The notes under the pieces were generated by a model. The model had not been told where the DNA came from and made no database searches. It saw only the letters and a program-made list of their open reading frames with translations. This document shows positions 39,464 to 59,076 of a DNA stretch of 64,000 bases, piece by piece. The stretch is taken from assembly GCA_034437815.1 (NCBI GenBank), contig DAOTTC010000088.1, forward strand, positions 9,371 through 73,370, read 5' to 3'. The stretch's first letter is position 1, and the number at the start of each line of letters is the position of its first letter. This DNA is from Chloroflexia bacterium. Lineage in GTDB: Bacteria; Chloroflexota; Chloroflexia; QHBQ01; JADMIH01. The translations under genes were made by a program, and so were the position numbers.

Positions 39464-40180
39464 CTATACAGTTTGTAGATGCAGCACCACCACCAGTAAC
39501 CGTCCCGAATCGAACTTCACCTGTGCCAGAGGGCCGAGCAACCGGTTACTCACACCCCGGCCCCTACCGGGATAGAGGCTCTCGTTTCGCAGTGGATATT
39601 CGAGGTCGCGGGTCACGACGCCAGTGACCTCGTGTCCGACGGGTAGCAGGGTGAGGGTGTCGCCCGCGTGCCCAACGATCTTGTTCCATACGCCGGGCTT
39701 GGCCAAGAACACCTCCTGTCCGCCGTCCACCAGCCTCACATCGAACGGGGCTACCTCAGGGTGGGTGAGCAACAGCACGTTGGCAAGCGTATGGTCCAAC
39801 CGCCCCCCGATCGCGCCCAGCACATAGACAACATCGGGTAGCCATTCAAGTGCGGCCAACACCGCCAGCTCGGTGTCGGTCTCTAGCTTGGTGGTGTGCT
39901 CGAAGCGGCGGAAGGGCACCCCACGAGCCTCCAGTTCGGCGCTCATCGCCGGGGGCATGCTGTCGAGGTCCCCCACCACCAAATCGGGCACCAGCCCCAG
40001 TTGCGCCGCCAGCATGGTCCCACCGTCTGCGACCACCACGCGCTCCGGTCTGGGCAGCCAGCTTGTGGACGCCCGTATATCGTTTGTGGGACCTGCTGCC
40101 AGCACCCACACACACCGAGGCCCACCCGACTTACCACCGTTCTCGCGGCTCACCTCCAAGTTCCCGGCATCCTCTGTCAA
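39464..40180 (-). CDS. thiN: thiamine diphosphokinase
   Basis: VVVADGG, VVGDLDS, KLETDTELA, GAIGGRLDHTLAN, GRGVSN. Start is uncertain but must lie downstream of the terminator at 40214. Confidence 0.9.
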   Translation of the reverse strand: MTEDAGNLEVSRENGGKSGGPRCVWVLAAGPTNDIRASTSWLPRPERVVVADGGTMLAAQLGLVPDLVVGDLDSMPPAMSAELEARGVPFRRFEHTTKLETDTELAVLAALEWLPDVVYVLGAIGGRLDHTLANVLLLTHPEVAPFDVRLVDGGQEVFLAKPGVWNKIVGHAGDTLTLLPVGHEVTGVVTRDLEYPLRNESLYPGRGRGVSNRLLGPLAQVKFDSGRLLVVVLHLQTV

Positions 40181-40213
40181 ACTCGTACCCCCGCATAGAC
40201 AAAAAGCTAACAT

Positions 40214-40253
40214 AAAAGGAAAGGCCGCAAACCCCAGCTCGGAGAATGCGGCC
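40214..40253 (-). terminator. riboswitch expression-platform intrinsic terminator
   Basis: GGCCGCA-N17-TGCGGCC followed by TTTCCTTTT on the minus strand. Confidence 0.7.
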
Positions 40254-40285
40254 CGCAAGTGCATAACGTGAGATGTTGTGATGCA

Positions 40286-40384
40286 GGTGGCTTCCCTACG
40301 CTGGCATTACCCAGTATCAGGTTTGAAGGGTCCGCGACGAACGGCCGCGTTCTCAGCCCGGCTTCCCCGAGCTCCCCTAGCACC
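40286..40384 (-). promoter_or_regulatory. TPP riboswitch
   Basis: Minus strand reads GGGGAGC...GGCTGAGA...ACCCTTCAAACCTGATACTGGGTAATGCCAGCGTAGGGAAG, matching the THI-box consensus. Confidence 0.95.
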
Positions 40385-40429
40385 AGATGAATATTCGATT
40401 ATTAACGGGAAAGGCGCCTTTCGATTTCT

Positions 40430-45136: not shown

Positions 45137-48100
45137 CTACGGCAAAGTGACCAGCACGACACCCGAAGCTCGCGCCAGCAGGTTGACCCCACCATTGGTC
45201 AATTGCATGTACCGCGATGGCATGGGGTAGAAGGTAATGTGCACAGGGTCGGGTGCCACGCTCAGCACCTTGAACCTGAGCTTTGCGATGGTGAACGTGC
45301 CTTGCGGCGGTGTTCCTTGCAACAGCCCTGCAGAATAACCGAGGGCACCGCCTTTGCCGTCAACCCAGTTGCCCATGACCGCGGGCAGAGCCACCCCCGG
45401 CTCAACTGCCTGAGCAGGTGCCCCCTGCGCGTCTACCAACAAGAGCCGGTTTGCGTCATACCTTACAATGAATGCCGCCCCGTCCACGGGTTGGGTGCCC
45501 GTGTCGGCCAGCACTTCGACCTCTACGACCTCGCCCACGCGCGCGCTGGTTCTGCTGGCAGCCATGCGCATGGTCAACGTCTTCTGTAGTTGCTCGGGGT
45601 TCAGCCATGGAGACAGCGCGTGCGCCAAGTTGGTGCTCATCGCCATCGTCCGCACCCCACCGTCCGCCGAGATGTCGCCACACAGGTCGAAGCCGGAGCG
45701 AAGCAGGCTGACATCGCTCATGCTGACCTCCCCATCGCCGTTCAGGTCTGCGGCGGGGTTGAACCCGGGCGTGCTCTTGTCGACACCCAGCATGGACTGC
45801 ACCACAGCGAAATCGTTGACGGTGACGCAGTTGTCGCCATCAACATCGCCCTCCACTTGCGCCTTCATATCCAGTTCAACCACCGCCGATGGGGTGATGT
45901 TGACCGATGCGCGCGCGGTTTGCAGGCTATGTGGGCCTTTCACATGCACGTTGTACACCCCGGCAGGCAGGCCCCTGAACACAGCCACGCCGTTGCGGTC
46001 GGTGGTTGCGCTGTATTTGGCCACGATTTTGGCGTCCTGTGGGGTGGACAGGAACAAGGTCAGCGGCTGAATCCAACTATCGTTGGGGGCTTTCTGCCTG
46101 CCCAGCCACTGTACACGCACGCGCAGCGCACCCGGCCCCTGTCCATCGGAAGGCGCAGGTTGCACCTTTGGCACCTGCGGCCCACCGGACGCGGCAAGCA
46201 TGGTGAACTCTAATCTACCCTGCGTGCTTTTGCTGTAGTACTGCACACGGATCGTGTGCATGCCCGCGTCGAGGTCTGCTCTGTATCTCTCGGTGTGCCA
46301 GCCTTCCCAGAACCAACCGTTGACCGCCAGCACCCCGTCAACCCACAGCCTTGCACCGCCCTCGCCCGAAATCACGAAATCATAGGTGCCCGGAGCGACC
46401 TGAATCTCCTTCGTAAACTGGGCTGACCACCCTTCGGTGCCGAGGCCATAGCTCGTAGATTTGCCGGTGGGCCACGCAATATTGGGTTCGGGCACGTCCC
46501 TCACCAGCGTAGGTTGGCCGGGCAGCTTGAAGGCGGGCGCGTCCTGCGGTGAAGGGGGTTTGTAGCCGGTGAAATATTCGGCCTTCCAGCCCGTGAACCT
46601 ATCGGGCCACGGCGTAAGTCTCACCGAGCCGCCGCTGATGCTGAGCAGCCCTCCGGTGAAGCTCTGGCTCTGTGCGCCGCCCAGTTCGGGTGCAGCCACA
46701 AAGGGGTCGGAGATGGGCGGGCCCACCCACTCAGGGCCGGGCGGCACATGTGTCGCATATGCCTGCGCGATAGCCCCGGATAGCACATAAGCCCGCGGAG
46801 CCGATTTGAGCACATCGTACACCAGCCACACGCCTCCCCCGCCCTGTGGTCCACTCAGCGGTTGGGCCAGCACATTGTATTCGGAGATATAGGGCAACCA
46901 CCAGCGCACCGCCCCTATCGGCCTGCCCAAAGCCTGCACCCCGCCATTGCGATTATACGCCTCCATGAATACCTCAGGCTTGGTTGAACCTTGCCCGACG
47001 GTGAAGGTGGGTGGTGCCGGCGGACGGCCGGTAGGAGTGACAGTGCTGGCCGCGGTGGGCGCGGGCATACCATCATAGCCGCCACCCGGCGGCGCCGGGC
47101 TAACGCGCGCCCCCGAATAGTAAAACTCGGTTATCCAGCCCCATGGTTTGCCTCGGTCTGCGTAGTAGGCGGTGCCCCACTGAGTCATGTACGAGCTTGG
47201 CCACGGACACTCGCCCACGGGGTCGGGGTCGTATGAGCCCGCGCAATACTGAGCTTGAAACAGCACCCCGTTTCTGGTCAGGCTGTAGTTGAAGGTCGCA
47301 TCCACTGCGGCATCGGTGCTGGCGTAGCTGACGTTGGGGTCGTACACCTGATCGTCGACGTTGTCCTTGAGGTCTGCGCCCAGAGCCGTCTGCTTGCCTC
47401 CTCTGCTGATCCAGAACCACGCATATGTCTTCACCGCCATGGCCCCTGCTTTCAACGCTTCGGGCGACCATGTGGGTATCCATTCATTGGGAAGCACGTG
47501 CTTCAGGTAGTCTCGGAACGGCACCACTTCCACCTGCCCGGTAGCCACCCGATACACTCGGATGGTCGCGGGTGGGGTCTGGCTTCCCGTCTGGTAAGCC
47601 ATGATCGCCGGCCTTTCATTGACGCTAGCGCCGACAGTCGCGTCAAGGTCCAAGCCGAACGCTGAGGTTAAGTCTAGTAGGGCTGCCCTGCCGTGCGCGG
47701 CGGCAGTGAGCACTGTTGCATCGTTACCCGCGAGCTTCAGACGCGCATGTATGCGCAGGGTATCCCCACGGTAGTACACCGCACCGTGCAGGGTCCACAG
47801 TGCGTAGCCTTCCTTATGCACCTTCACCGTGACCGGCTGGCGGTCCGCACTCGTAACGGCCTCCGTATCCTCTAGTGTATGCAGGGGGAACGCGAAATAG
47901 CCATTCTCATCGGTGAAAGCATGAGCGCCGTCGTTGATGGTTACCCGCGCATTTGCGACCGGCCCACCCGACCCCTCCTCGAGCACATGGCCTTCGATGG
48001 CAGGCGATGACGCCGAGCGTGCATTAGCCTCGCCCGCGCCTACAGGTTCTTGAGCATACACCGGCAGGTCGGCGCCGGAAGAGAGGAGATCGGTGGAAGA

Positions 48101-48190
48101 ATATATGCGACCCGCCCCCGCAAGCAGTATCACAAGCAGGAGCGGCAACAACAGGACGCGCGCAACCGTCTGATGGTTAAACCTCGGCAT
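45137..48190 (-). CDS. secreted SpoIID/LytB-domain protein with carboxypeptidase-regulatory-like, LGFP-like, PA14, X-dockerin and cohesin modules
   Basis: YLKHVLPNEW..EALKAGAMAVKTYAW (SpoIID); WKAEYF..WSAQF..GGARLWVDG (PA14); GDVDGDNCVTVND and ADLNGDGEVSMSD (dockerin); C-terminal VGEVVEVEV..VDGAAFIVRYD (cohesin); ATG at 48190 after GGAGG. Confidence 0.85.
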   Translation of the reverse strand: MPRFNHQTVARVLLLPLLLVILLAGAGRIYSSTDLLSSGADLPVYAQEPVGAGEANARSASSPAIEGHVLEEGSGGPVANARVTINDGAHAFTDENGYFAFPLHTLEDTEAVTSADRQPVTVKVHKEGYALWTLHGAVYYRGDTLRIHARLKLAGNDATVLTAAAHGRAALLDLTSAFGLDLDATVGASVNERPAIMAYQTGSQTPPATIRVYRVATGQVEVVPFRDYLKHVLPNEWIPTWSPEALKAGAMAVKTYAWFWISRGGKQTALGADLKDNVDDQVYDPNVSYASTDAAVDATFNYSLTRNGVLFQAQYCAGSYDPDPVGECPWPSSYMTQWGTAYYADRGKPWGWITEFYYSGARVSPAPPGGGYDGMPAPTAASTVTPTGRPPAPPTFTVGQGSTKPEVFMEAYNRNGGVQALGRPIGAVRWWLPYISEYNVLAQPLSGPQGGGGVWLVYDVLKSAPRAYVLSGAIAQAYATHVPPGPEWVGPPISDPFVAAPELGGAQSQSFTGGLLSISGGSVRLTPWPDRFTGWKAEYFTGYKPPSPQDAPAFKLPGQPTLVRDVPEPNIAWPTGKSTSYGLGTEGWSAQFTKEIQVAPGTYDFVISGEGGARLWVDGVLAVNGWFWEGWHTERYRADLDAGMHTIRVQYYSKSTQGRLEFTMLAASGGPQVPKVQPAPSDGQGPGALRVRVQWLGRQKAPNDSWIQPLTLFLSTPQDAKIVAKYSATTDRNGVAVFRGLPAGVYNVHVKGPHSLQTARASVNITPSAVVELDMKAQVEGDVDGDNCVTVNDFAVVQSMLGVDKSTPGFNPAADLNGDGEVSMSDVSLLRSGFDLCGDISADGGVRTMAMSTNLAHALSPWLNPEQLQKTLTMRMAASRTSARVGEVVEVEVLADTGTQPVDGAAFIVRYDANRLLLVDAQGAPAQAVEPGVALPAVMGNWVDGKGGALGYSAGLLQGTPPQGTFTIAKLRFKVLSVAPDPVHITFYPMPSRYMQLTNGGVNLLARASGVVLVTLP

Positions 48191-48276
48191 TGGCCCTCCG
48201 CTGAGTTTGTTGTGGCAGGGTCTATGTCGTTGTCGCGCTATCACACGAGCGCGCTCGATTGTAATTCATTGCGAAC

Positions 48277-49513: not shown

Positions 49514-50817
49514 TTGTGCTTGGCAGCCGCGGCCGCAGACAGCTAAAATCCAGAATACGCAATTTATGGCCCACCTCTGGGCTGTTGCGTCAGGGCGCCA
49601 CCCTGTTTTTATCCAACAGCCTCGGTCAGGCCCTCGCTTTCTTGACGTCCATCGCCGTGGGCAGGCTACTCGGTGTGCACAGCTTTGGCCAATACGCCAC
49701 GGTCATGGCATTGGTGTTCGTGCTGGGCGTTTTCGCCGAGATGGGCATGGAGACGCACCTGACCAGAGAAGTGGCCCGTTCGCCTGCGAGGAGCAGAGAG
49801 CTCTTGCTGGCGTCGCTGCTGGCCAAGAGCATGTTGGGCGGCGTGCTGGCACTGGCGCTTGCTCTGCCCGCGCTTGCCGGCCTGTTGGCCCCGGATAGGA
49901 GCAGCGTGCCGGCTGTGCAAGTGGCGGGTCTGTTGCTGGTACTCAACGCATATAACGCATCGTTCAGCGCGGTGTTCCGAGCATGGGGGCGCATGGGTTA
50001 CGTTCTGGCAATCAATGTCTCTGGCCTCTCCTTGCAGCTGGCCGGAGCCATACCCGTGCTTGTGGCCTTCCGCAGCGTGCCCGCGCTCATGGTGTGGCTT
50101 GTGGTCGTGCAGGTCTATGAGCTGGCACTTGGTTGGTGGCTGTTCCGGAAGAGCGAGCGAATGTATGGGACCGGCGCATTGCACCCACGCCTGCGCTACC
50201 TTGCCGCCGACCTGTTGCGCCGGTCGCTGCCTTTCACCCTCGCCGGGGTGGTGGGAGCGTTGACCCTGAGGATCGATCTTTTCCTGATAGAGGCGCTGCG
50301 AGGCGTATCCTCGGCAGGGGTGTACGGCGTTGCCCTACGTTTAGCCGACCTGCTTGTGCTGGCCCCCAACTCTCTGTATGCGGCCCTGCTGCCCGCGCTG
50401 GCAGTGGCACACAATGGGGGGTCGGTCGGCACTACCTACCGAGAGGCAGTGCGCGCGATGGCCCTCGTGGGCTTGGTTGCCACACTCCTTGGCCTGCTGC
50501 TGGCCGACCTATTTGTATGGTTCAGCTTCGGGGAAGACTTTCGGGCCGCCGCGCACCCCCTGCAAGTGCTCTCCCTTATGCTCCCGGCCCTGCTGGTGAA
50601 CCGCACTACCACAGTGCAATTATACGCCAGCTACCGTGAGGCTCACGCCAACGTGGGGCTAGTGCTGAACCTTGGGGTGCGGGTTGCCATGGGCCTCATG
50701 CTTGTGGGAGCGTGGGGTGCACCGGGCGCGGCGCTGGCCGCTGTCAGTGGAGAGTGCGCTTTGTTATGTTTTTACTACCTGACGGGAGCCATGAGGGCAG
50801 AAAGCACCCAGCGATGA
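49510..50817 (+). CDS. Wzx/MOP-family oligosaccharide flippase
   Basis: Multi-TM; GRLLGVHSFGQY, EMGMETHLTREVAR, GVYGVALRL; GTG overlaps the upstream stop. Confidence 0.88.
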   Translation: MIVLGSRGRRQLKSRIRNLWPTSGLLRQGATLFLSNSLGQALAFLTSIAVGRLLGVHSFGQYATVMALVFVLGVFAEMGMETHLTREVARSPARSRELLLASLLAKSMLGGVLALALALPALAGLLAPDRSSVPAVQVAGLLLVLNAYNASFSAVFRAWGRMGYVLAINVSGLSLQLAGAIPVLVAFRSVPALMVWLVVVQVYELALGWWLFRKSERMYGTGALHPRLRYLAADLLRRSLPFTLAGVVGALTLRIDLFLIEALRGVSSAGVYGVALRLADLLVLAPNSLYAALLPALAVAHNGGSVGTTYREAVRAMALVGLVATLLGLLLADLFVWFSFGEDFRAAAHPLQVLSLMLPALLVNRTTTVQLYASYREAHANVGLVLNLGVRVAMGLMLVGAWGAPGAALAAVSGECALLCFYYLTGAMRAESTQR

Positions 50818-51530
50818 AGCGCCGATGGAAGCGGTTGGTCAGGTATGTGTTGAAGCGGGTGCTGGACTGGCGCTTCCGCAACTTCCGGCCGGGTGCCCGG
50901 CCTGCGCACGAGGTGCGCGTCGCTGGTTTGCGTTTGCGTGTGCTGACTGGCGTGTTCGATCCCCGTCTGCACTTTACCAGCGCGTTCCTCGCGACCTACC
51001 TGCGCAGGCCGGGGGTAGTGCCGCCCGGTGGCCGGGTGCTGGACCTCGGCACGGGCACAGGCATCATGGCCATCACCGCCGGTCTAGCCGGTGCCGGGCT
51101 GGTGGTGGCCACCGACATCAACCCGGCGGCAGTGCGGTGCGCAACCGGCAATGTGCTTCGCTACGGCCTGCAACATCGTGTCATGGTGCGTGCGGGCGAC
51201 CTGTTCGCACCGGTTGCGGGTGAGCGCTTCGATCTGATCGTCACCAACCCGCCCTACTACCGTGGTGAACCACGCACTATGATCGAGCGGGCTTATATGG
51301 CCGGCAGCGCGCATGAGTGGCTGGCCCGCTTCGCCTCGGGCCTTCACAAGCACTTGACCCCACACGGCCAAGCCCTTGTTGTGCTCGGCGACTCGGCGGA
51401 CATATCTGCGATCCTTGCGTTGCTGGAAGCCGCGGGCTTGCAGGTCATGCTCGTGGCCCACCGCGACATACTGGTGGAAGCGCTGTATATCTACGCACTG
51501 GTCCCTACGCAGACTGCTCCGAGGGTTTGA
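50814..51530 (+). CDS. HemK/PrmC-like (NPPY) methyltransferase
   Basis: VLDLGTGTG, TDINPAAV, GDLFAPV, FDLIVTNPPYY; ATGA coupling to the flippase. Confidence 0.88.
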   Translation: MKRRWKRLVRYVLKRVLDWRFRNFRPGARPAHEVRVAGLRLRVLTGVFDPRLHFTSAFLATYLRRPGVVPPGGRVLDLGTGTGIMAITAGLAGAGLVVATDINPAAVRCATGNVLRYGLQHRVMVRAGDLFAPVAGERFDLIVTNPPYYRGEPRTMIERAYMAGSAHEWLARFASGLHKHLTPHGQALVVLGDSADISAILALLEAAGLQVMLVAHRDILVEALYIYALVPTQTAPRV

Positions 51531-53257
51531 TGGATTGGTCGGCACCACAGGTGAAGAGCGCTCCGCGGGTACCCTGTGGGCTGGCGCCTCTGCTCGCTTT
51601 TGCAGGCGTGGCTTGTGTAGGCGCTTCACTCTTAGCCTACCTCCTCCTTCGATTCCCCTTCGATGGATTGTACGGGCAAGACAGCTACGCTTATTACTAT
51701 CAGTCCCTCGAGCTGTGGCGTCGGCTGACCGGTGGGGAGGTTCCCCGATGGCCCTTCGAGGGAGTGGGGCTGTATCATTGGCCGGTTGGCTACCATCTGC
51801 ACATAATTGCAGGCTTGGTGGTGGGCGATGGTCCACAGGGTGGGCGCGCGATTACACTCGTCATGGCCGTGCTCCTGCCGGTGATGGTGGCTGTGCTTGC
51901 ATGGGAGCTGTTGCGCTATAGGCCAGCGCCCGAGCGCCTGTTTGCCGGCGTGGTGGCGGGCCTCACCCTGCTGTTCACAGGCGTGTATGTGCGCAGTGGA
52001 CTGGCGCTCATGTCCGACCTGCCCGCCCTGTTCTGGACGATGTTGGGGCTAAATTGCTGGGTACGCGCCGTGGCCCTGAGCGATAACCCCTATCCGCGCC
52101 GCGCCGCACCTGTTGCGGTCTATGGGTTTATCGCGGGGCTGGCTCTGGGCATGGCTGTCGCAGTGCGCTATACTTCCGTGTTGCTGGTGGTCCCGGCTCT
52201 GGCCTATCTCCTTGCGTACAGGCCGCTTCCTGCGAGCGTAGACCCACGCGCGGCAGGTGAGCACCCAGTGCAATCAAGAACGAGGTTTGCCCGACCGACG
52301 TGGGCACTGCAGTCACTACGCCGGTTGCTCACGTGGGGGGGAGTGGGATTTGCTATGGGCCTGCTGCCTCAAATCGCCTACAGGTTGTCTTACACCAACA
52401 GCCCTGCCGGCTTGCCCGTGGACTGGAACATGGGCAACTTTTTTGCGACCATTGTTAGCAGGTCGTCGGGTGACATGGCTGTGTTCTCTTACCCGATGTC
52501 GGTGTTCTATGTGGTCATGCCCGCCGCTGACCCTTCGGGCACTTTCCTCTCGCCGTTATACCTGCCTGCTCTGGCTCTGGGTCTTGCCCTGATGGTGCGC
52601 AAGAGGCAGTGGCCCGCCCTCACACTGCTCGTCAGTTGGTGGTTGGTGCCCGCCCTCTTCTTGAGCGGCACCACATTTCAGACCCACCGTTATGTGCTGG
52701 CATACCTGCCGCCGCTGGCTGTGTTGATAGGCACGGGCACAATCAATGCTTTGAGGAGCGCTGCTTCGACATACAGCCTGCCGTTAGCTTGGGGCCGAAA
52801 GTGGGCCGCGGCGGTGTTTGCAGCACTTGCACTTGTAGGCATCGTGGGAGGTCTATCCCATGGTCTGGTGGCGGCGCACGATAATGCCCGAATGCTCGCC
52901 GGCTTTCAAGCCGAGGAACAAGCGCTGGCCTCTCTGGTGAAAGAGGCCGTGTCACTACCGCATGCGCCAACTGGACAAGGCTCCGTGGGCATTGTGTGCT
53001 TCGGAGTGAGCGCAGCCCTTTACCATAATACAGGTTGGGCGGTGCTGGATTTCTATAACCACGATGAGGCTGAGATAAACCACTTTGTGCAAGCCCACGA
53101 CACCAGCCTGCTGGTGGTGCCGACCGAGCTTATGGATACCCGTTGGCATAATACTCCCTCGGCCCGGCGCTGGCATTATATGCAACGGGCCTACCGGCTG
53201 GTCTTCGCGGGCCGGATCGGTCAGTACAGCGTGTATCTCGTCGAGGGGATGCGTTGA
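51530..53257 (+). CDS. GT-C fold (PMT/ArnT-like) membrane glycosyltransferase
   Basis: DGLYGQDSYAY acidic first loop, HWPVGY, LMSDLPAL, RYVLAYLPPL; multi-TM. Confidence 0.8.
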   Translation: MDWSAPQVKSAPRVPCGLAPLLAFAGVACVGASLLAYLLLRFPFDGLYGQDSYAYYYQSLELWRRLTGGEVPRWPFEGVGLYHWPVGYHLHIIAGLVVGDGPQGGRAITLVMAVLLPVMVAVLAWELLRYRPAPERLFAGVVAGLTLLFTGVYVRSGLALMSDLPALFWTMLGLNCWVRAVALSDNPYPRRAAPVAVYGFIAGLALGMAVAVRYTSVLLVVPALAYLLAYRPLPASVDPRAAGEHPVQSRTRFARPTWALQSLRRLLTWGGVGFAMGLLPQIAYRLSYTNSPAGLPVDWNMGNFFATIVSRSSGDMAVFSYPMSVFYVVMPAADPSGTFLSPLYLPALALGLALMVRKRQWPALTLLVSWWLVPALFLSGTTFQTHRYVLAYLPPLAVLIGTGTINALRSAASTYSLPLAWGRKWAAAVFAALALVGIVGGLSHGLVAAHDNARMLAGFQAEEQALASLVKEAVSLPHAPTGQGSVGIVCFGVSAALYHNTGWAVLDFYNHDEAEINHFVQAHDTSLLVVPTELMDTRWHNTPSARRWHYMQRAYRLVFAGRIGQYSVYLVEGMR

Positions 53258-53292
53258 TCCCACGCCCCTTTGCGATGGAGTTGGCGATATGA

Positions 53293-53320
53293 AGCCACGA
53301 TAATTACCGTTATCGTGGGT
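53293..53320. other. dif-like tyrosine-recombinase core site (11-6-11)
   Basis: AGCCACGATAA TTACCG TTATCGTGGGT; perfect 9-bp arms, extending to 13/15 bp; 130 bp upstream of the recombinase gene. Confidence 0.6.
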
Positions 53321-53355
53321 ACATTGGCTAAATTAGACCGCGCAGTGGATATCCG

Positions 53356-53383
53356 TTGCGATAAGGCCTCGCGCATGTATAAT
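53356..53383 (+). promoter_or_regulatory. putative sigma70 promoter of the recombinase
   Basis: TTGCGA-16 nt-TATAAT. Confidence 0.6.
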
Positions 53384-53450
53384 AGCAAGTGTGCCTCTGT
53401 GCCTCGTCCGTAAAGCTGCAAACAGCACCCACACACGACAGGATACGATC

Positions 53451-54548
53451 ATGGCATCGGCCGTAAACAAGCCCAGACACCACCGGCTCTCGGACAGCGC
53501 CGCCGGTGACCCGGGGGAAGCCACCCCGATAACTTCTCACATATCCGCTCCCACTTCGCAGTGGCCTGAGGCTCTTACTACCTTGCCTGCCCCTCTGGCC
53601 TGCCCAGACCCGGTCGAAGTGGTGCTCGCTGGGGTGTTATCCGGCAACAGTAAGCGGGCCTATCTGGGGGACATCAGGCATTTCTTGGGCTACTTGCAAG
53701 AGCGGGGCATTGCCTTGCAGCAGGTGTCCAAGCCTGTTATGATAGGATACCGCGCATATCTGGCCCACAGGTATGCACCCGCCACTGTCAACAGGCGGCT
53801 GACGGTGGCTCGCCGGCTGGTGACCGAGGCTTGGGAGCTTGGTTTGCTGGTAGGACAGGCGCGCAATCCCGCCGAAGGGCGCGCGGTCGCGGGTCTCAAG
53901 CATGGAGGAGACCGTGGGAAGCCGGCGCTCACAATGGAGCAGGCGCGCCAACTGTTAGCGCACACCCGCGCCGCAGGCGATCTGCCGGCCCTCCGGGATG
54001 CGGCGCTGTTGCACCTGTTGATCGGCACGGGCATGCGCCGGTCAGAGGTGGTGGCAGCGCGCCTGTCCGACCTCAAATTGGAGAACGGCTACCATGTTCT
54101 CGTGGTGACGGGCAAGGGCAATAAGCGGCGGTTGGTCAAGCTCAACGACGGCGTGCTGGCTGACCTATATGCATGGCTCACAGCGGCAGGTCGTGGTTAT
54201 GTCAACTCGCAGGGCAGGTTCGTGCCCACCACCATATATGCGCCGCTGTTTTCCGCGGTGAGGCGCATAGGACGCGGCCCGGCTGCGCACTGGCGGGTGA
54301 GCGACAAACCATTGTCCGATTGGTCGGTGTGGCAGATAGTGACCCGGCGCATAACCGGCGCGGGGCTTGAAGTGGACACGTCGCCCCACGGCCTGCGCGC
54401 CACGTTTATAACACTGGCGCTCGAAGCCGGTGCCACCATCTCCAAAGTGCAGGACGCCGCCGGCCACAGCGACCCCCGCACCACCGACCGCTACCGGAGG
54501 CGCAAAGCCACCCTCGACGACAACGCCGCGGATTACGTTCGCCTGTAA
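53451..54548 (+). CDS. tyrosine recombinase (XerC/D-like, N-terminal SAM-like domain)
   Basis: RDAALLHLLIGTGMRRSEV (R), GKGNKRR (K), HGLRAT (H-X-X-R), AGHSDPRTTDRY (H, Y): the full catalytic set. Confidence 0.93.
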   Translation: MASAVNKPRHHRLSDSAAGDPGEATPITSHISAPTSQWPEALTTLPAPLACPDPVEVVLAGVLSGNSKRAYLGDIRHFLGYLQERGIALQQVSKPVMIGYRAYLAHRYAPATVNRRLTVARRLVTEAWELGLLVGQARNPAEGRAVAGLKHGGDRGKPALTMEQARQLLAHTRAAGDLPALRDAALLHLLIGTGMRRSEVVAARLSDLKLENGYHVLVVTGKGNKRRLVKLNDGVLADLYAWLTAAGRGYVNSQGRFVPTTIYAPLFSAVRRIGRGPAAHWRVSDKPLSDWSVWQIVTRRITGAGLEVDTSPHGLRATFITLALEAGATISKVQDAAGHSDPRTTDRYRRRKATLDDNAADYVRL

Positions 54549-54562
54549 CAGTGGCACAAGAT

Positions 54563-54638
54563 GGGGTGCAGGGGCACTCCCCTGCCGGGGGTTGTGGGGG
54601 TACAAGTGTCCCCACCTCTCCTAATTTATAGCCTTTCC
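54563..54638 (+). repeat. family I REP/PATE-like element
   Basis: GGGGTGCAGGGGCACTCCCCTGCCGGGGGTTGTGGGGG...CTCTCCTAATTTATAGCCTTTCC. Confidence 0.82.
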
Positions 54639-54700
54639 GGGATAATTGACCTCACACAGCGTGTCTTGTGAATACAAGCTGGCGAAAGGAGCCAACGAGC

Positions 54701-55006
54701 ATGGTGCGGGTAATCCGCAGGCAAGAAGGCACTCCAGTGACCGAAGCCTCGATCAGGCGTCAGTTCGAAGCCGAAGGTCTACAACCTTACGCATGGTCCA
54801 ACGCCCCGGGGGACGTGTACGGCGTGCATTCCCACCCCTACCATAAGGTGCTCTACGTGGTGCAAGGTTCGATTACTTTTCGCCTGCCCGATAGGGGCGA
54901 ATCGATAGAGCTTCAGCCGGGGGACCGCCTTGAACTGCCCCCGGGAGTGCGCCACGACGCCATAGTCGGACCGAAAGGTGTAGTGTGCCTTGAGGCGCAC
55001 ATGTGA
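54701..55006 (+). CDS. cupin domain protein
   Basis: YGVHSHPYHKVLYVVQGSI and LQPGDRLELPPGVRH cupin motifs. Confidence 0.88.
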   Translation: MVRVIRRQEGTPVTEASIRRQFEAEGLQPYAWSNAPGDVYGVHSHPYHKVLYVVQGSITFRLPDRGESIELQPGDRLELPPGVRHDAIVGPKGVVCLEAHM

Positions 55007-56958: not shown

Positions 56959-59076
56959 ATGGCGGGCGACGCAGATATATTCAAGTACGAAACCACGCGT
57001 CGGGAACGCGAATTGATGGTCAAACAGCAGATCGAAGCGCGGGGTGTGCGCGACCCGGCGGTGCTCAAAGCTATGCGTGAAGTGCCACGTGAGCTTTTCG
57101 TGGAGGAACACCAGCGCCCCTTTGCCTACGCCGATACCCCATTGCCCATACCAGAGGGTCAGGTCATCACCCAGCCCTATCTGGTAGGGCTGATGGCTCA
57201 GGCGCTACAATTATCGCCTACGGACAGGGTGCTGGAAGTAGGCACCGGCTCGGGTTACGCGGCGGCTGTGCTGAGTCGCATAGCCGGCGAAGTGTACACT
57301 ATCGAGAGGTTCCCGTCGCTGGCGGAGGCCGCCATGCAACGGCTCGCCGAGCTTGGCTACAACAACGTGCATGTCAAGTTGGGCGATGGCAGCCTCGGCT
57401 GGCCGGAGCATGCCCCATATGATGCGATCTCGGTGGCCGCAGGCGGTCCGGCTGTGCCCAAAGCTCTGCTCGACCAACTCAAGATTGGCGGGCGCATGGT
57501 AATACCACTCGGTGACCGGCATGGTCAGTCTCTGGTGCGCATCGTGAGGCGTGGACCAGACCGCTATGAACGGCAAGATCTGGGGCCTGTGCGGTTCGTG
57601 CCGCTTGTTGGCGAACAGGGCTGGCCTGACGACCCCGCCCCCTCAGGTCGCAATCCGGGCAGCGACAGGATCGAACCAGACGTCCGCCACCACACACCGA
57701 ACCCCCCTGATCCGCCCGACCCCGATTCACCACGCAGACGGTATGAATTGCTGGGTCAGGTCGAGTCCGTGGCCGCGCTGATAGCCGAAGGGGCAGAGCC
57801 AATTGCCGACATTGAGAAGGCCACCTTGACCGCTTTGCTGAAGCGAATCGCGGGTTGTCGCGTTGTGCTCATCGGAGAAGCTACTCATGGTACTTCCGAG
57901 TTCTACAGGATGCGAGCGGCAATCACCCGTGCCCTGATTCAGCAGCAGGGCTTCAATTTCGTCGCGGCTGAAGCCGATTGGCCCGACACAGCCCGCGTAG
58001 ATAGGTATGTGCGCCATGCTACCACCCCCGGACGTGCCGCGCGTATCTTTGTGCGCTTCCCTACTTGGATGTGGCGCAACGTAGAGGTGCTCGATTTCGT
58101 GGAGTGGCTCCGCGAACATAACATGCATCTCCCACACAGCCGGCGTGTGGGATTCCACGGGCTTGACCTGTACAGCCTGTACGAGTCGGTGGCCGAAGTA
58201 CTGCATTACTTGGAGCAGGTAGACCCTGAGTCGGCACGCATCGCCCGGGCGCGTTACGGATGCCTGACGCCCTTCCAGTCCGACCCTGCCCTTTACGGCC
58301 ATGCAGCCATCACCGGTCAGTATAAAAGTTGCGAGCAAGAGGTGGTGCAGATGCTGGTAGACCTCTTGCGAAAGCGTCTGGAGTTCGAGTCAGGCGCGGA
58401 TGAGGAAGCAGGCGAGCGCTTCTTCGATGCTTTGCAGAATGCCCGTGTCATAGCCGATGCCGAGAAGTACTATCGCGCCATGTACTATGGCACCGCCGAA
58501 TCTTGGAACCTGCGCGACCGGCATATGTTCGAAACCTTGCAAACGCTTATGGACAGGTACGGACCCGATGCGAAGGGCATCGTTTGGGCACACAACTCAC
58601 ACGTGGGGGATGCCTGTGCGACCGAGATGTTCGAGCGTGATGAGATCAATATCGGGCATTTGGCGAGGCAGGCATATGGCATGGAGGCGTACATTATAGG
58701 CTTCGGCACTGACCATGGCACGGTAGCCGCGGCCTCCAACTGGGGTGAGCCTGTGCAGATAATGCAAGTGCGCCCGGCCCACCCTCGGAGTTATGAGCAC
58801 TTGTGCCACCGCTCCGGAGTGCAAGCCTTTATCCTCAGCCTGCGCCAACCGGCCGTGCAAGCGCTCGACGAGGAATTGCGCGTGCAACGGCTGGAGCGAG
58901 CTATCGGGGTCATCTACCGGCCAGAGACCGAATTGCTCAGCCACTATTTCGAGGCCAGCCTGCCCGCGCAGTTCGACGAGTATATCTGGTTCGACGAGAC
59001 GCACGCTGTCACTCCTCTGGGTCGACCGCATGCGCCTCGCCTGCCCGACACCCACCCCTTTGCTTTGCTCGACTAA
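56959..59076 (+). CDS. pcm: protein-L-isoaspartate O-methyltransferase fused to erythromycin esterase-family domain
   Basis: VLEVGTGSGY, GDGSLGWPEHAPYDAI; then IGEATHGTSEFY, RFPTWMWRN, WNLRD, WAHNSHVGDA, ERAIGVIYRPE. Confidence 0.92.
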   Translation: MAGDADIFKYETTRRERELMVKQQIEARGVRDPAVLKAMREVPRELFVEEHQRPFAYADTPLPIPEGQVITQPYLVGLMAQALQLSPTDRVLEVGTGSGYAAAVLSRIAGEVYTIERFPSLAEAAMQRLAELGYNNVHVKLGDGSLGWPEHAPYDAISVAAGGPAVPKALLDQLKIGGRMVIPLGDRHGQSLVRIVRRGPDRYERQDLGPVRFVPLVGEQGWPDDPAPSGRNPGSDRIEPDVRHHTPNPPDPPDPDSPRRRYELLGQVESVAALIAEGAEPIADIEKATLTALLKRIAGCRVVLIGEATHGTSEFYRMRAAITRALIQQQGFNFVAAEADWPDTARVDRYVRHATTPGRAARIFVRFPTWMWRNVEVLDFVEWLREHNMHLPHSRRVGFHGLDLYSLYESVAEVLHYLEQVDPESARIARARYGCLTPFQSDPALYGHAAITGQYKSCEQEVVQMLVDLLRKRLEFESGADEEAGERFFDALQNARVIADAEKYYRAMYYGTAESWNLRDRHMFETLQTLMDRYGPDAKGIVWAHNSHVGDACATEMFERDEINIGHLARQAYGMEAYIIGFGTDHGTVAAASNWGEPVQIMQVRPAHPRSYEHLCHRSGVQAFILSLRQPAVQALDEELRVQRLERAIGVIYRPETELLSHYFEASLPAQFDEYIWFDETHAVTPLGRPHAPRLPDTHPFALLD

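Follow-up and report, generated by a model that had tools for sequence, protein, structure and literature searches.

The DNA analyzed here, called the window throughout, is a stretch of 64,000 nucleotides from a Chloroflexia bacterium (GTDB lineage Chloroflexota; Chloroflexia; QHBQ01; JADMIH01; assembly GCA_034437815.1, contig DAOTTC010000088.1, positions 9,371 to 73,370 of the forward strand). It carries the gene of a single tyrosine recombinase and, directly upstream of that gene, a 28-bp palindrome with the layout of a dif site. A first-pass annotation made from the letters of the sequence had singled out the pair as a candidate single-recombinase Xer/dif (or resolvase) system. The features of the locus are the following, with positions counted from the first letter of the window.

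53293..53320, no strand: dif-like core site of 28 bp, 11-6-11, AGCCACGATAA TTACCG TTATCGTGGGT (read directly and found as inverted repeat I6)
53293..53303, no strand: left arm, presumed binding site for one recombinase monomer (read directly)
53304..53309, no strand: central (overlap) region TTACCG, 6 bp, asymmetric; this spacer varies among orthologs
53310..53320, no strand: right arm, an inverted copy of the left arm (read directly and found as an inverted repeat)
53326..53333, plus strand: flanking motif of moderate conservation, on the side that faces the recombinase gene, here GGCTAAAT (alignment A2)
53356..53383, plus strand: sigma-70-like promoter of the recombinase gene, TTGCGA-16-TATAAT, 10/12 matches (promoter call)
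53451..54548, plus strand: tyrosine recombinase of 365 aa (Pfam, open reading frame, family alignment, and profile comparison)

The site lies in non-coding DNA between the stop codon (53257) of an open reading frame for a PMT-like glycosyltransferase and the ATG of the recombinase gene (53451). It begins 36 bp past that stop codon and ends 35 bp before the promoter and 130 bp before the ATG. The arms are perfect over 9 bp (53295-53303 and 53310-53318, with the 6-nt spacer between them), and when extended to 53289-53303 and 53310-53324 they match at 13 of 15 positions (87%), with two mismatches. The description given in the first-pass annotation, of a 28-mer with these arms and spacer and a sigma70-like promoter 35 bp beyond it, is thus an accurate reading of the letters. 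The exact 24-nt pattern would be expected 0.02 times by chance in the 64-kb window. Comparable inverted repeats within 30 nt number 60 in the window, and the palindrome by itself is therefore unremarkable; its significance comes from its conservation and its linkage to the recombinase only.

Measured against the definition of dif in PMC2958812 and the dif sequences of Escherichia coli, Bacillus subtilis, and Frankia alni printed in PMC3025954, the site has the expected layout: about 28 bp of non-coding DNA with two 11-bp inverted arms, a 6-bp center, and ATAA/TTAT at the inner ends. The inner end of the left arm, CGATAA, is that of the XerC arm of the F. alni dif (CACGCCGATAA). Only the spacer gives the otherwise symmetric site a direction.

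The protein belongs to the tyrosine recombinase superfamily (PF00589), with a SAM-like core-binding domain at residues 61-125 (Phage_int_SAM_1) and a catalytic domain at residues 160-351 (Phage_integrase, 1.3e-25) in Pfam. These two domains alone, with no arm-binding domain, make up a simple Xer-like architecture, preceded by an N-terminal tail of about 55 aa that is variable, unconserved, and of low complexity. The public gene call (P0001, 309 aa) starts later than the 365-aa open reading frame, so the start codon is uncertain. All six catalytic residues that the first-pass annotation had listed as R-K-H-R-H-Y are present (R196, K222, H313, R316, H339, and Y348) and are invariant across 27 family members, which argues that catalysis is under selection. 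The best relatives of the family profile among solved (PDB) structures are XerD (139 bits), XerA, and XerH. The recombinase nonetheless scores far below the cutoffs of the curated equivalog models, with 107 bits against 329.6 for XerD (TIGR02225), 105.3 against 335.15 for XerC (TIGR02224), 56.2 against 267 for XerS (NF003462), and 82.3 against 220 for XerA (NF040815). The Xer specificity motif is XKX in XerA, RQX in XerD, and XRX in XerC (PMC2958812); at that position, in a profile alignment to XerD, the window protein has S-D-W. By the curated models, then, the module is not one of the named XerC, XerD, XerS, or XerA families.

Conservation of the site beside recombinase genes

A protein search gave about 20 ortholog clusters at 62 to 76% identity; the next matches had 46% or less. 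Nine distinct orthologous loci were compared, the window itself and L002, L004, L006, L007, L010, L018 (identical to L123), L122, and L124. The first-pass annotation had suggested looking for the 28-mer upstream of orthologs, and CCACGATAA-N6-TTATCGTGG indeed stands upstream of the recombinase gene at all nine, within about 300 bp and no more than roughly 360 bp from where the conserved part of the protein begins. These arms are invariant in the nine orthologous loci and in seven more distant recombinase-linked loci. The spacers of the orthologs vary (TTACCG, TTACTG, TTCCTG, TGACCG, GGGAAA, and CTGTTA), and the remaining intergenic DNA is essentially unalignable, with a mean column identity of 39%; the arms hold 19 of the 25 invariant columns. 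G87, A91, and A93, invariant columns of alignment A2, belong to a motif 4 to 13 nt to the recombinase side of the site, GTGTAAAT in most orthologs and GGCTAAAT in the window (aligned in L004, L006, L007, L010, L018/L123, and L122). This motif stands at too great a distance from the -10 box to serve as its -35 element and resembles the TGTAAA half-site of sister recombinases described below; it is possibly an accessory or regulatory site. The aligned -10 box of the orthologs reads TATAAT, TAGAAT, or TACAAT; apart from the site, this box and the motif are the only features of the intergenic region that can be made out.

The order methyltransferase-[PMT]-site-recombinase-cupin is conserved on contigs of 200 to 640 kb (up to 641 kb), and this shared neighborhood indicates that the module is chromosomal and vertically inherited. 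Long contigs of the lineage include CAWEQU010000006.1 (641 kb), Ga0193598_1000003 (402 kb), Ga0467065_0000024 (368 kb), and DASWMJ010000089.1 (341 kb). Most orthologous loci have a PMT-like glycosyltransferase gene immediately before the site; L018, L123, and L124 have an MTS methyltransferase there, and L010 has a molybdopterin oxidoreductase/cytochrome b561. Since the upstream gene differs while the site stays, the site belongs to the recombinase and not to the gene before it.

The exact pattern CCACGATAA-N6-TTATCGTGG, with its 18 specified bases, was also scanned through one genome per species for 185,579 species. It occurred at 25 loci, where about 9 would be expected under uniform base composition (5.96e11 bases / 4^18). 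Four of the 25 are in Chloroflexia/Chloroflexi metagenome-assembled genomes, with one match each, always beside an ortholog. Uniqueness of the site in the genome, another check that the first-pass annotation had put forward, thus holds in all four of these Chloroflexia species-representative assemblies, counted as exact matches in draft metagenome-assembled genomes. Several of the other loci look like chance terminators with runs of A and T on either side. Five of the 21 loci outside the Chloroflexi (L009, L011, L016, L021, and L031) have a tyrosine recombinase gene within about 0.1 to 1.1 kb, far more than chance proximity would give, since by our estimate about 0.5% of a genome is so near a gene of this kind. 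The recombinases at these five loci are only distantly related to the window protein, at 23 to 30% identity.

In three of the five (L009, 5095-5118; L011, 6082-6105; L016, 2527-2550) a gene for a KfrA_N-domain coiled-coil protein of about 350 aa points away from the recombinase gene, and the site occupies the interval between the two. These are from Gamma- and Betaproteobacteria, and the core reads (T/A)ACC(C)ACGATAA-N6-TTATCGTGGGT. The same kfrA-site-recombinase arrangement is found on the Pseudomonas putida plasmid pND6-1 (L032, about 2798-2825; replicon type IncP per PLSDB), where the site is ACCCACGATAA GCGCGG TTATCGTGAGT, and relatives of the kfrA-linked recombinases occur on more than 1,000 PLSDB plasmids. 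The unit looks like a plasmid maintenance (multimer-resolution) cassette that has not been described before. A diverged and asymmetric form, TTTCGATAA TGTCAC TTATTACAGG, is found on plasmid pADP-1, which, like a Deinococcus plasmid, has CGATAA-N6-TTAT/TTAC between different outer bases. An inner CGATAA is thus probably common to this class of site throughout the family, and the identity of the outer CCA in the scan matches was imposed by the search pattern. A rough neighbor-joining tree places the kfrA-linked plasmid recombinases on a branch distant from the window protein. Horizontal transfer was considered as the cause of the shared site and finds no support, the plasmid recombinases being 23 to 30% identical and branching far away. 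The one partner that the site keeps throughout is thus the recombinase.

Two of the scan loci have arrangements of their own. In Granulicella mallensis (L031, 4667-6719) the site is followed by a gene for a YhcG/DUF1016 PD-(D/E)XK nuclease and then by a gene for a 308-aa tyrosine recombinase, a two-gene unit unlike both the Chloroflexia and the plasmid arrangements. At L021 (2500-3542) a perfect site stands beside a recombinase split into two open reading frames (174 and 173 aa), apparently by a frameshift, and the other neighbor is a protein with Schlafen/AlbA_2 and HATPase_c_4 domains.

More distant relatives of the recombinase have symmetric sites of different sequence. The 600 nt upstream of 80 metagenomic relatives among the matches listed (mostly 25 to 45% identity) were scanned for 11-6-11 palindromes, with coding regions as controls that never exceeded 9 of 11 matching positions. 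At least 10 of 11 was reached only in the orthologs, L035/L036, L071, L078, L117, L011, L021, and L032 (pND6-1), of which L011, L021, and L032 had entered the comparison through the site itself, as pattern-scan or plasmid loci. In relatives at 32 to 41% identity the 5' end of the gene carries a different symmetric site with a 6-bp spacer. That of L035/L036 (41% identity) is GGGTTGTAAAA GTGTCA TTTTACAATCC, and that of L071 and L078 (32 to 33% identity) is CCTACGATAA TGACCG TTATCGTAGG, a symmetric change in both arms. Sister recombinases at 36 to 41% identity have (C)TGTAAA-N6-TTTACA(G) directly upstream (L035, 2888-2915; L046, about 352-377; and L047), and the three cluster in the rough neighbor-joining tree. 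The L046 site comes directly after a TTGACA-17-TAGAAT promoter, the L071 site lies 3 nt before the ATG, and that of L039 is 10 nt upstream of it. L035 also has a third half-site, TTTACAG, which overlaps the -35 box. Upstream of the plasmid relatives from Rubrobacter, Anabaena, and Deinococcus, nothing convincing was seen in the way of symmetric sites. A 314-aa Coxiella plasmid integrase was also matched; XerL, with its catalytic Tyr at 389, is longer, and the DNA upstream of the integrase gene showed no palindrome.

Candidate roles of the recombinase-site module

Our preferred reading, to which we give a probability of about 0.5, is that the 28-bp palindrome is the cognate core site of the adjacent recombinase and that the two form a self-contained and vertically inherited module of the Xer/dif type, with chromosome-dimer resolution as its likeliest function. 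The case for site and recombinase being a cognate pair is strong; that for the specific biological role is moderate and circumstantial. Three observations make dimer resolution the best reading: the site is single in each genome, the catalytic residues have been kept, and the gene has passed down by vertical inheritance. A lone site would meet a second copy on the same molecule only in a dimeric replicon, or through an incoming element that carries a mimic of it. Since both arms are the same, one protein species is expected rather than a heterotetramer. For the single-recombinase Xer/dif candidate of the first-pass annotation, this means that the recombinase/site pair and its dif layout stand, and that the chromosome-dimer role is reached by inference.

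The mechanism that we propose is extrapolated from XerCD, XerA, XerH, XerL, and Cre. One monomer would bind each of the identical arms, (A)CCCACGATAA, and the two copies of the site on a dimeric replicon would synapse as a homotetramer. Y348 would cleave at the borders between arms and spacer, at a distance of 6 bp, and strands would then be exchanged in two successive pairs, by way of a Holliday junction, to turn the dimer into monomers. The asymmetric 6-bp spacer would set the direction of the site. Occupancy of the site would probably also feed back on recombinase expression, as its position 35 bp upstream of the promoter makes plausible. The comparison shows a conserved site that is linked to the recombinase and single in each genome, intact catalytic residues, and chromosomal synteny; dimer resolution, binding, cleavage positions, and autoregulation are inferred.

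Several observations weigh against this reading. Nothing places the site at the replication terminus, where a dif site would be expected: the cumulative GC skew, profiled over 64 kb and thus over too short a stretch to say much on this point, has a small local maximum at the site that tracks the coding strand, and there is no window-wide extremum at 53.3 kb. The ortholog group with the exact site is narrow, comprising four species genomes and about 20 protein clusters, and as such it cannot be a phylum-wide system. The upstream scan found no clear symmetric site in L037, L038, and L041, and gene-adjacent symmetric sites are thus frequent, not universal, among the relatives. The palindrome is predicted to form a stable RNA hairpin (-28.1 kcal/mol, z = -4.07), and its outer flanks (positions 12-14) vary symmetrically between lineages, which would fit selection on a stem-loop too.

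The site could instead serve mainly as an operator for the recombinase promoter, bound by the recombinase or by another protein, with the real recombination target elsewhere or gone. A position 35 bp upstream of the -35 box would suit an operator, and in the relatives L046, L071, and L039 the site overlaps the transcription start or the 5' untranslated region and ribosome-binding site. However, the six catalytic residues are invariant across the family, which points to selection on recombination itself, and the geometry, with 6 bp between ATAA and TTAT ends, is that of a site for crossover and not merely of a dimer operator. The exact scan of these genomes gave no other match, so no alternative target is known. 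We consider it unlikely that regulation is the main role of the site. Regulation and recombination at one site are compatible, and the two readings are not mutually exclusive.

A second explanation is a DNA switch of the kind known from phase variation or developmental excision, in which the recombinase would invert or excise DNA by recombining this site with a diverged partner elsewhere in the chromosome. Tyrosine recombinases that use a strong gene-adjacent site together with a weaker partner site are known, and the genome-wide scan covered exact matches only. Within the 64-kb window, however, the site occurs once; a search allowing up to 3 mismatches gave no second full site, and matches to a half-site plus spacer did not exceed chance. 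There is also one exact site per genome in four genomes, and synteny is conserved on both sides of the module with no sign of alternative arrangements. A switch of this kind seems quite improbable.

About equally improbable, in our judgment, is that the module descends from a plasmid system for multimer resolution, was fixed in the chromosome, and persists there as a relic with no chromosomal role, or that it serves a secondary replicon not recognized as such. The idea draws on the same core site and a recombinase forming a proteobacterial plasmid module beside kfrA-like genes, as on pND6-1, and on relatives of the window protein at 33 to 36% identity on cyanobacterial, Deinococcus, and Rubrobacter plasmids. 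Against it, the plasmid recombinases sit on their distant branch of the rough neighbor-joining tree at 23 to 30% identity, the synteny is of a housekeeping type on contigs of 200 to 640 kb, and no replication, partition, or transfer genes were found near the Chloroflexia locus. The catalytic residues have also stayed intact in orthologs of 62 to 76% identity, which indicates purifying selection.

That the palindrome acts as an RNA hairpin, whether as a terminator or 3'-end stabilizer of the upstream gene or as a structure of the 5' untranslated region, is highly improbable. Besides the predicted stability and the symmetric flanks, its location 36 bp past the upstream stop codon would agree with such a role, and the hairpins past the recombinase stop have no T run either, a sign that terminators in this genome may be atypical. 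The site itself is followed by no U-tract and received no terminator call (the tail after it is GTACATTGGC), none of its seven inner pairs varies among orthologs, compensatory changes being likewise absent, and the upstream gene differs between genomes. The same sequence stands between divergent genes on plasmids, always with a recombinase, and there it cannot be a terminator. In the flanks, 9 cells of the alignment are changed on both sides, a degree of covariation reached in 16 to 18 of 500 shuffles; this fits coevolution with a homodimeric binder and also leaves some room for a stem-loop. An Rfam scan of the window found no known RNA element at the site, its only hit being a thiamine pyrophosphate (TPP) riboswitch elsewhere. 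The first-pass annotation had allowed that the palindrome might be no more than a terminator of the gene before it. We rejected this for the glycosyltransferase gene, as there is no terminator signal, the plasmid copies lie between divergent genes, and the site follows the recombinase while the gene upstream of it varies.

A prophage or island integrase was likewise rejected, there being no tRNA and no second tyrosine recombinase in the 64-kb window, no att repeats, conserved synteny, and no match to the site in the viral contigs of IMG/VR. Nearby genes encode ordinary functions of metabolism and the cell envelope (methyltransferases, a polysaccharide-synthesis protein, a cupin, ComA, and a TPP enzyme), and the recombinase is as isolated from tRNA, phage genes, and other integrases as the first-pass annotation had described it.

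Genes around the module

The conserved downstream neighbor of the recombinase gene is given here as context only.

54668..55006, plus strand: small cupin-domain gene (Pfam Cupin_2)

A cupin gene adjoins the recombinase gene in L002, L004, L006, L007, L018, L122, L123, and L124. In these eight loci the cupin, of about 100 aa, comes directly after the recombinase; it is on the opposite strand in L002. Several of the loci have gaps of 11 to 30 nt with both genes on the same strand, for which reason the two may be co-transcribed there. In the window, two G+C-rich hairpins with no T run lie past the recombinase stop at 54549-54640 (GCAGGGG-CACU-CCCCUGC and GUGGGGG...CCCCCAC), and they fold no more stably than shuffled sequence (z = -0.24).

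On the other side of the site, the methyltransferase open reading frame (50712-51530) and the longest open reading frame for the PMT-like protein (51317-53257) overlap by 214 nt in different frames, so the PMT-like gene probably starts further downstream than this frame suggests. Fusions of the methyltransferase with neighboring domains occur in some orthologous genomes, with products of 532 to 668 aa (L122, L124, and the contig of P0019). A 1,035-aa protein encoded at 45137-48244 on the minus strand combines SpoIID, PA14, carboxypeptidase-regulatory-like, and dockerin domains with a weak cohesin match, and a protein resembling it is a conserved neighbor in L123, L124, and the contig of P0019. 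The TPP riboswitch (Rfam RF00059, 62.9 bits) is at 40276-40388 on the minus strand, upstream of a minus-strand open reading frame at 39464-40264. At 56959-59076 on the plus strand, a 705-aa fusion joins a PCMT domain (protein-L-isoaspartate O-methyltransferase, 9e-62) to a domain of the erythromycin-esterase family (1.8e-134).

Relation to known recombination systems

One of the closest parallels in organization is XerS/difSL of streptococci and lactococci, likewise a single tyrosine recombinase with a dif-like site beside the xer gene, in one module (PMC2958812, PMC9765430). The window protein is nevertheless not a member of the XerS family, its score being 56 bits against an NCBIfam cutoff of 267. 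The streptococcal difSL is a 31-bp site with non-identical arms, whereas the arms here are identical in an 11-6-11 layout. XerH/difH also has a single recombinase with the site beside its gene. Linkage of the site to the xer gene, as expected of a single-recombinase module, is found in the window and in all orthologs.

The archaeal XerA/dif system shares near-perfect 11-6-11 arms with the present site, XerA is among the best solved relatives, and in Sulfolobales the dif site is close to xerA (PMC2958812). The present host, however, is bacterial, and the recombinase differs from XerA in its score (82 bits against a cutoff of 220) and in having S-D-W in place of XKX. In Legionellales the single recombinase XerL is necessary and sufficient, and the arms of its dif are long uninterrupted inverted repeats; on Coxiella plasmids the dif site is immediately beside xerL, whereas more than 400 kb separates the two in Legionella (PMC9765430). 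XerL is nonetheless a longer protein (catalytic Tyr 387/389) of a separate clade.

With XerC/XerD-dif the site has in common its 28 bp, the 11-6-11 layout, the inner ATAA/TTAT, and the CGATAA of the XerC arm of an actinobacterial dif. It differs in that both arms are the same, that it lies beside the gene, and that there is no XerD-type arm (TTATGTnAAnT), and the recombinase scores below the XerC and XerD cutoffs. Cre/loxP of P1 and ResD/rfsF of F have symmetric arms, an asymmetric spacer, and a gene-adjacent site, and resolve replicon dimers as a homotetramer. The Chloroflexia module differs from such plasmid and phage tyrosine resolvases in being chromosomal, in having a spacer of 6 bp and not 8, and in a protein that is only distantly related, with 23 to 30% identity to the kfrA-linked type.

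A large survey of dif sites (Kono et al.) included Dehalococcoides as its only member of the Chloroflexi, the genomes having been chosen by KEGG XerCD orthologs, an indirect hint that an XerC/XerD pair may be lacking in the genomes considered here. Our search of the literature on dimer resolution or Xer in Chloroflexia, and on kfrA-linked recombinase modules, returned nothing relevant. We propose tentatively, as somewhat less probable than the core reading above, that the module is a hitherto unrecognized dimer-resolution system of a Chloroflexia lineage in which a homotetramer would act on a symmetric dif within its own promoter region, and that it would belong to a wider Chloroflexota/Armatimonadota clade with lineage-specific, gene-adjacent dif sites.

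If this is true, the Chloroflexia module would be a fifth independent single-recombinase solution of the Xer type, after XerS, XerH, XerA, and XerL, and an unusually clean one, in which the arms are identical and direction comes from the spacer alone. The core shared with kfrA-linked plasmids would then show that dif/Xer cassettes are exchanged between plasmids and chromosomes or evolve in parallel on both, and the link to the plasmid kfrA-recombinase modules suggests how such cassettes may move between types of replicon. So compact a recombinase/site pair could also serve as a recombination tool. For the Chloroflexia themselves, a 28-bp site and a single 365-aa enzyme make dimer resolution directly testable.

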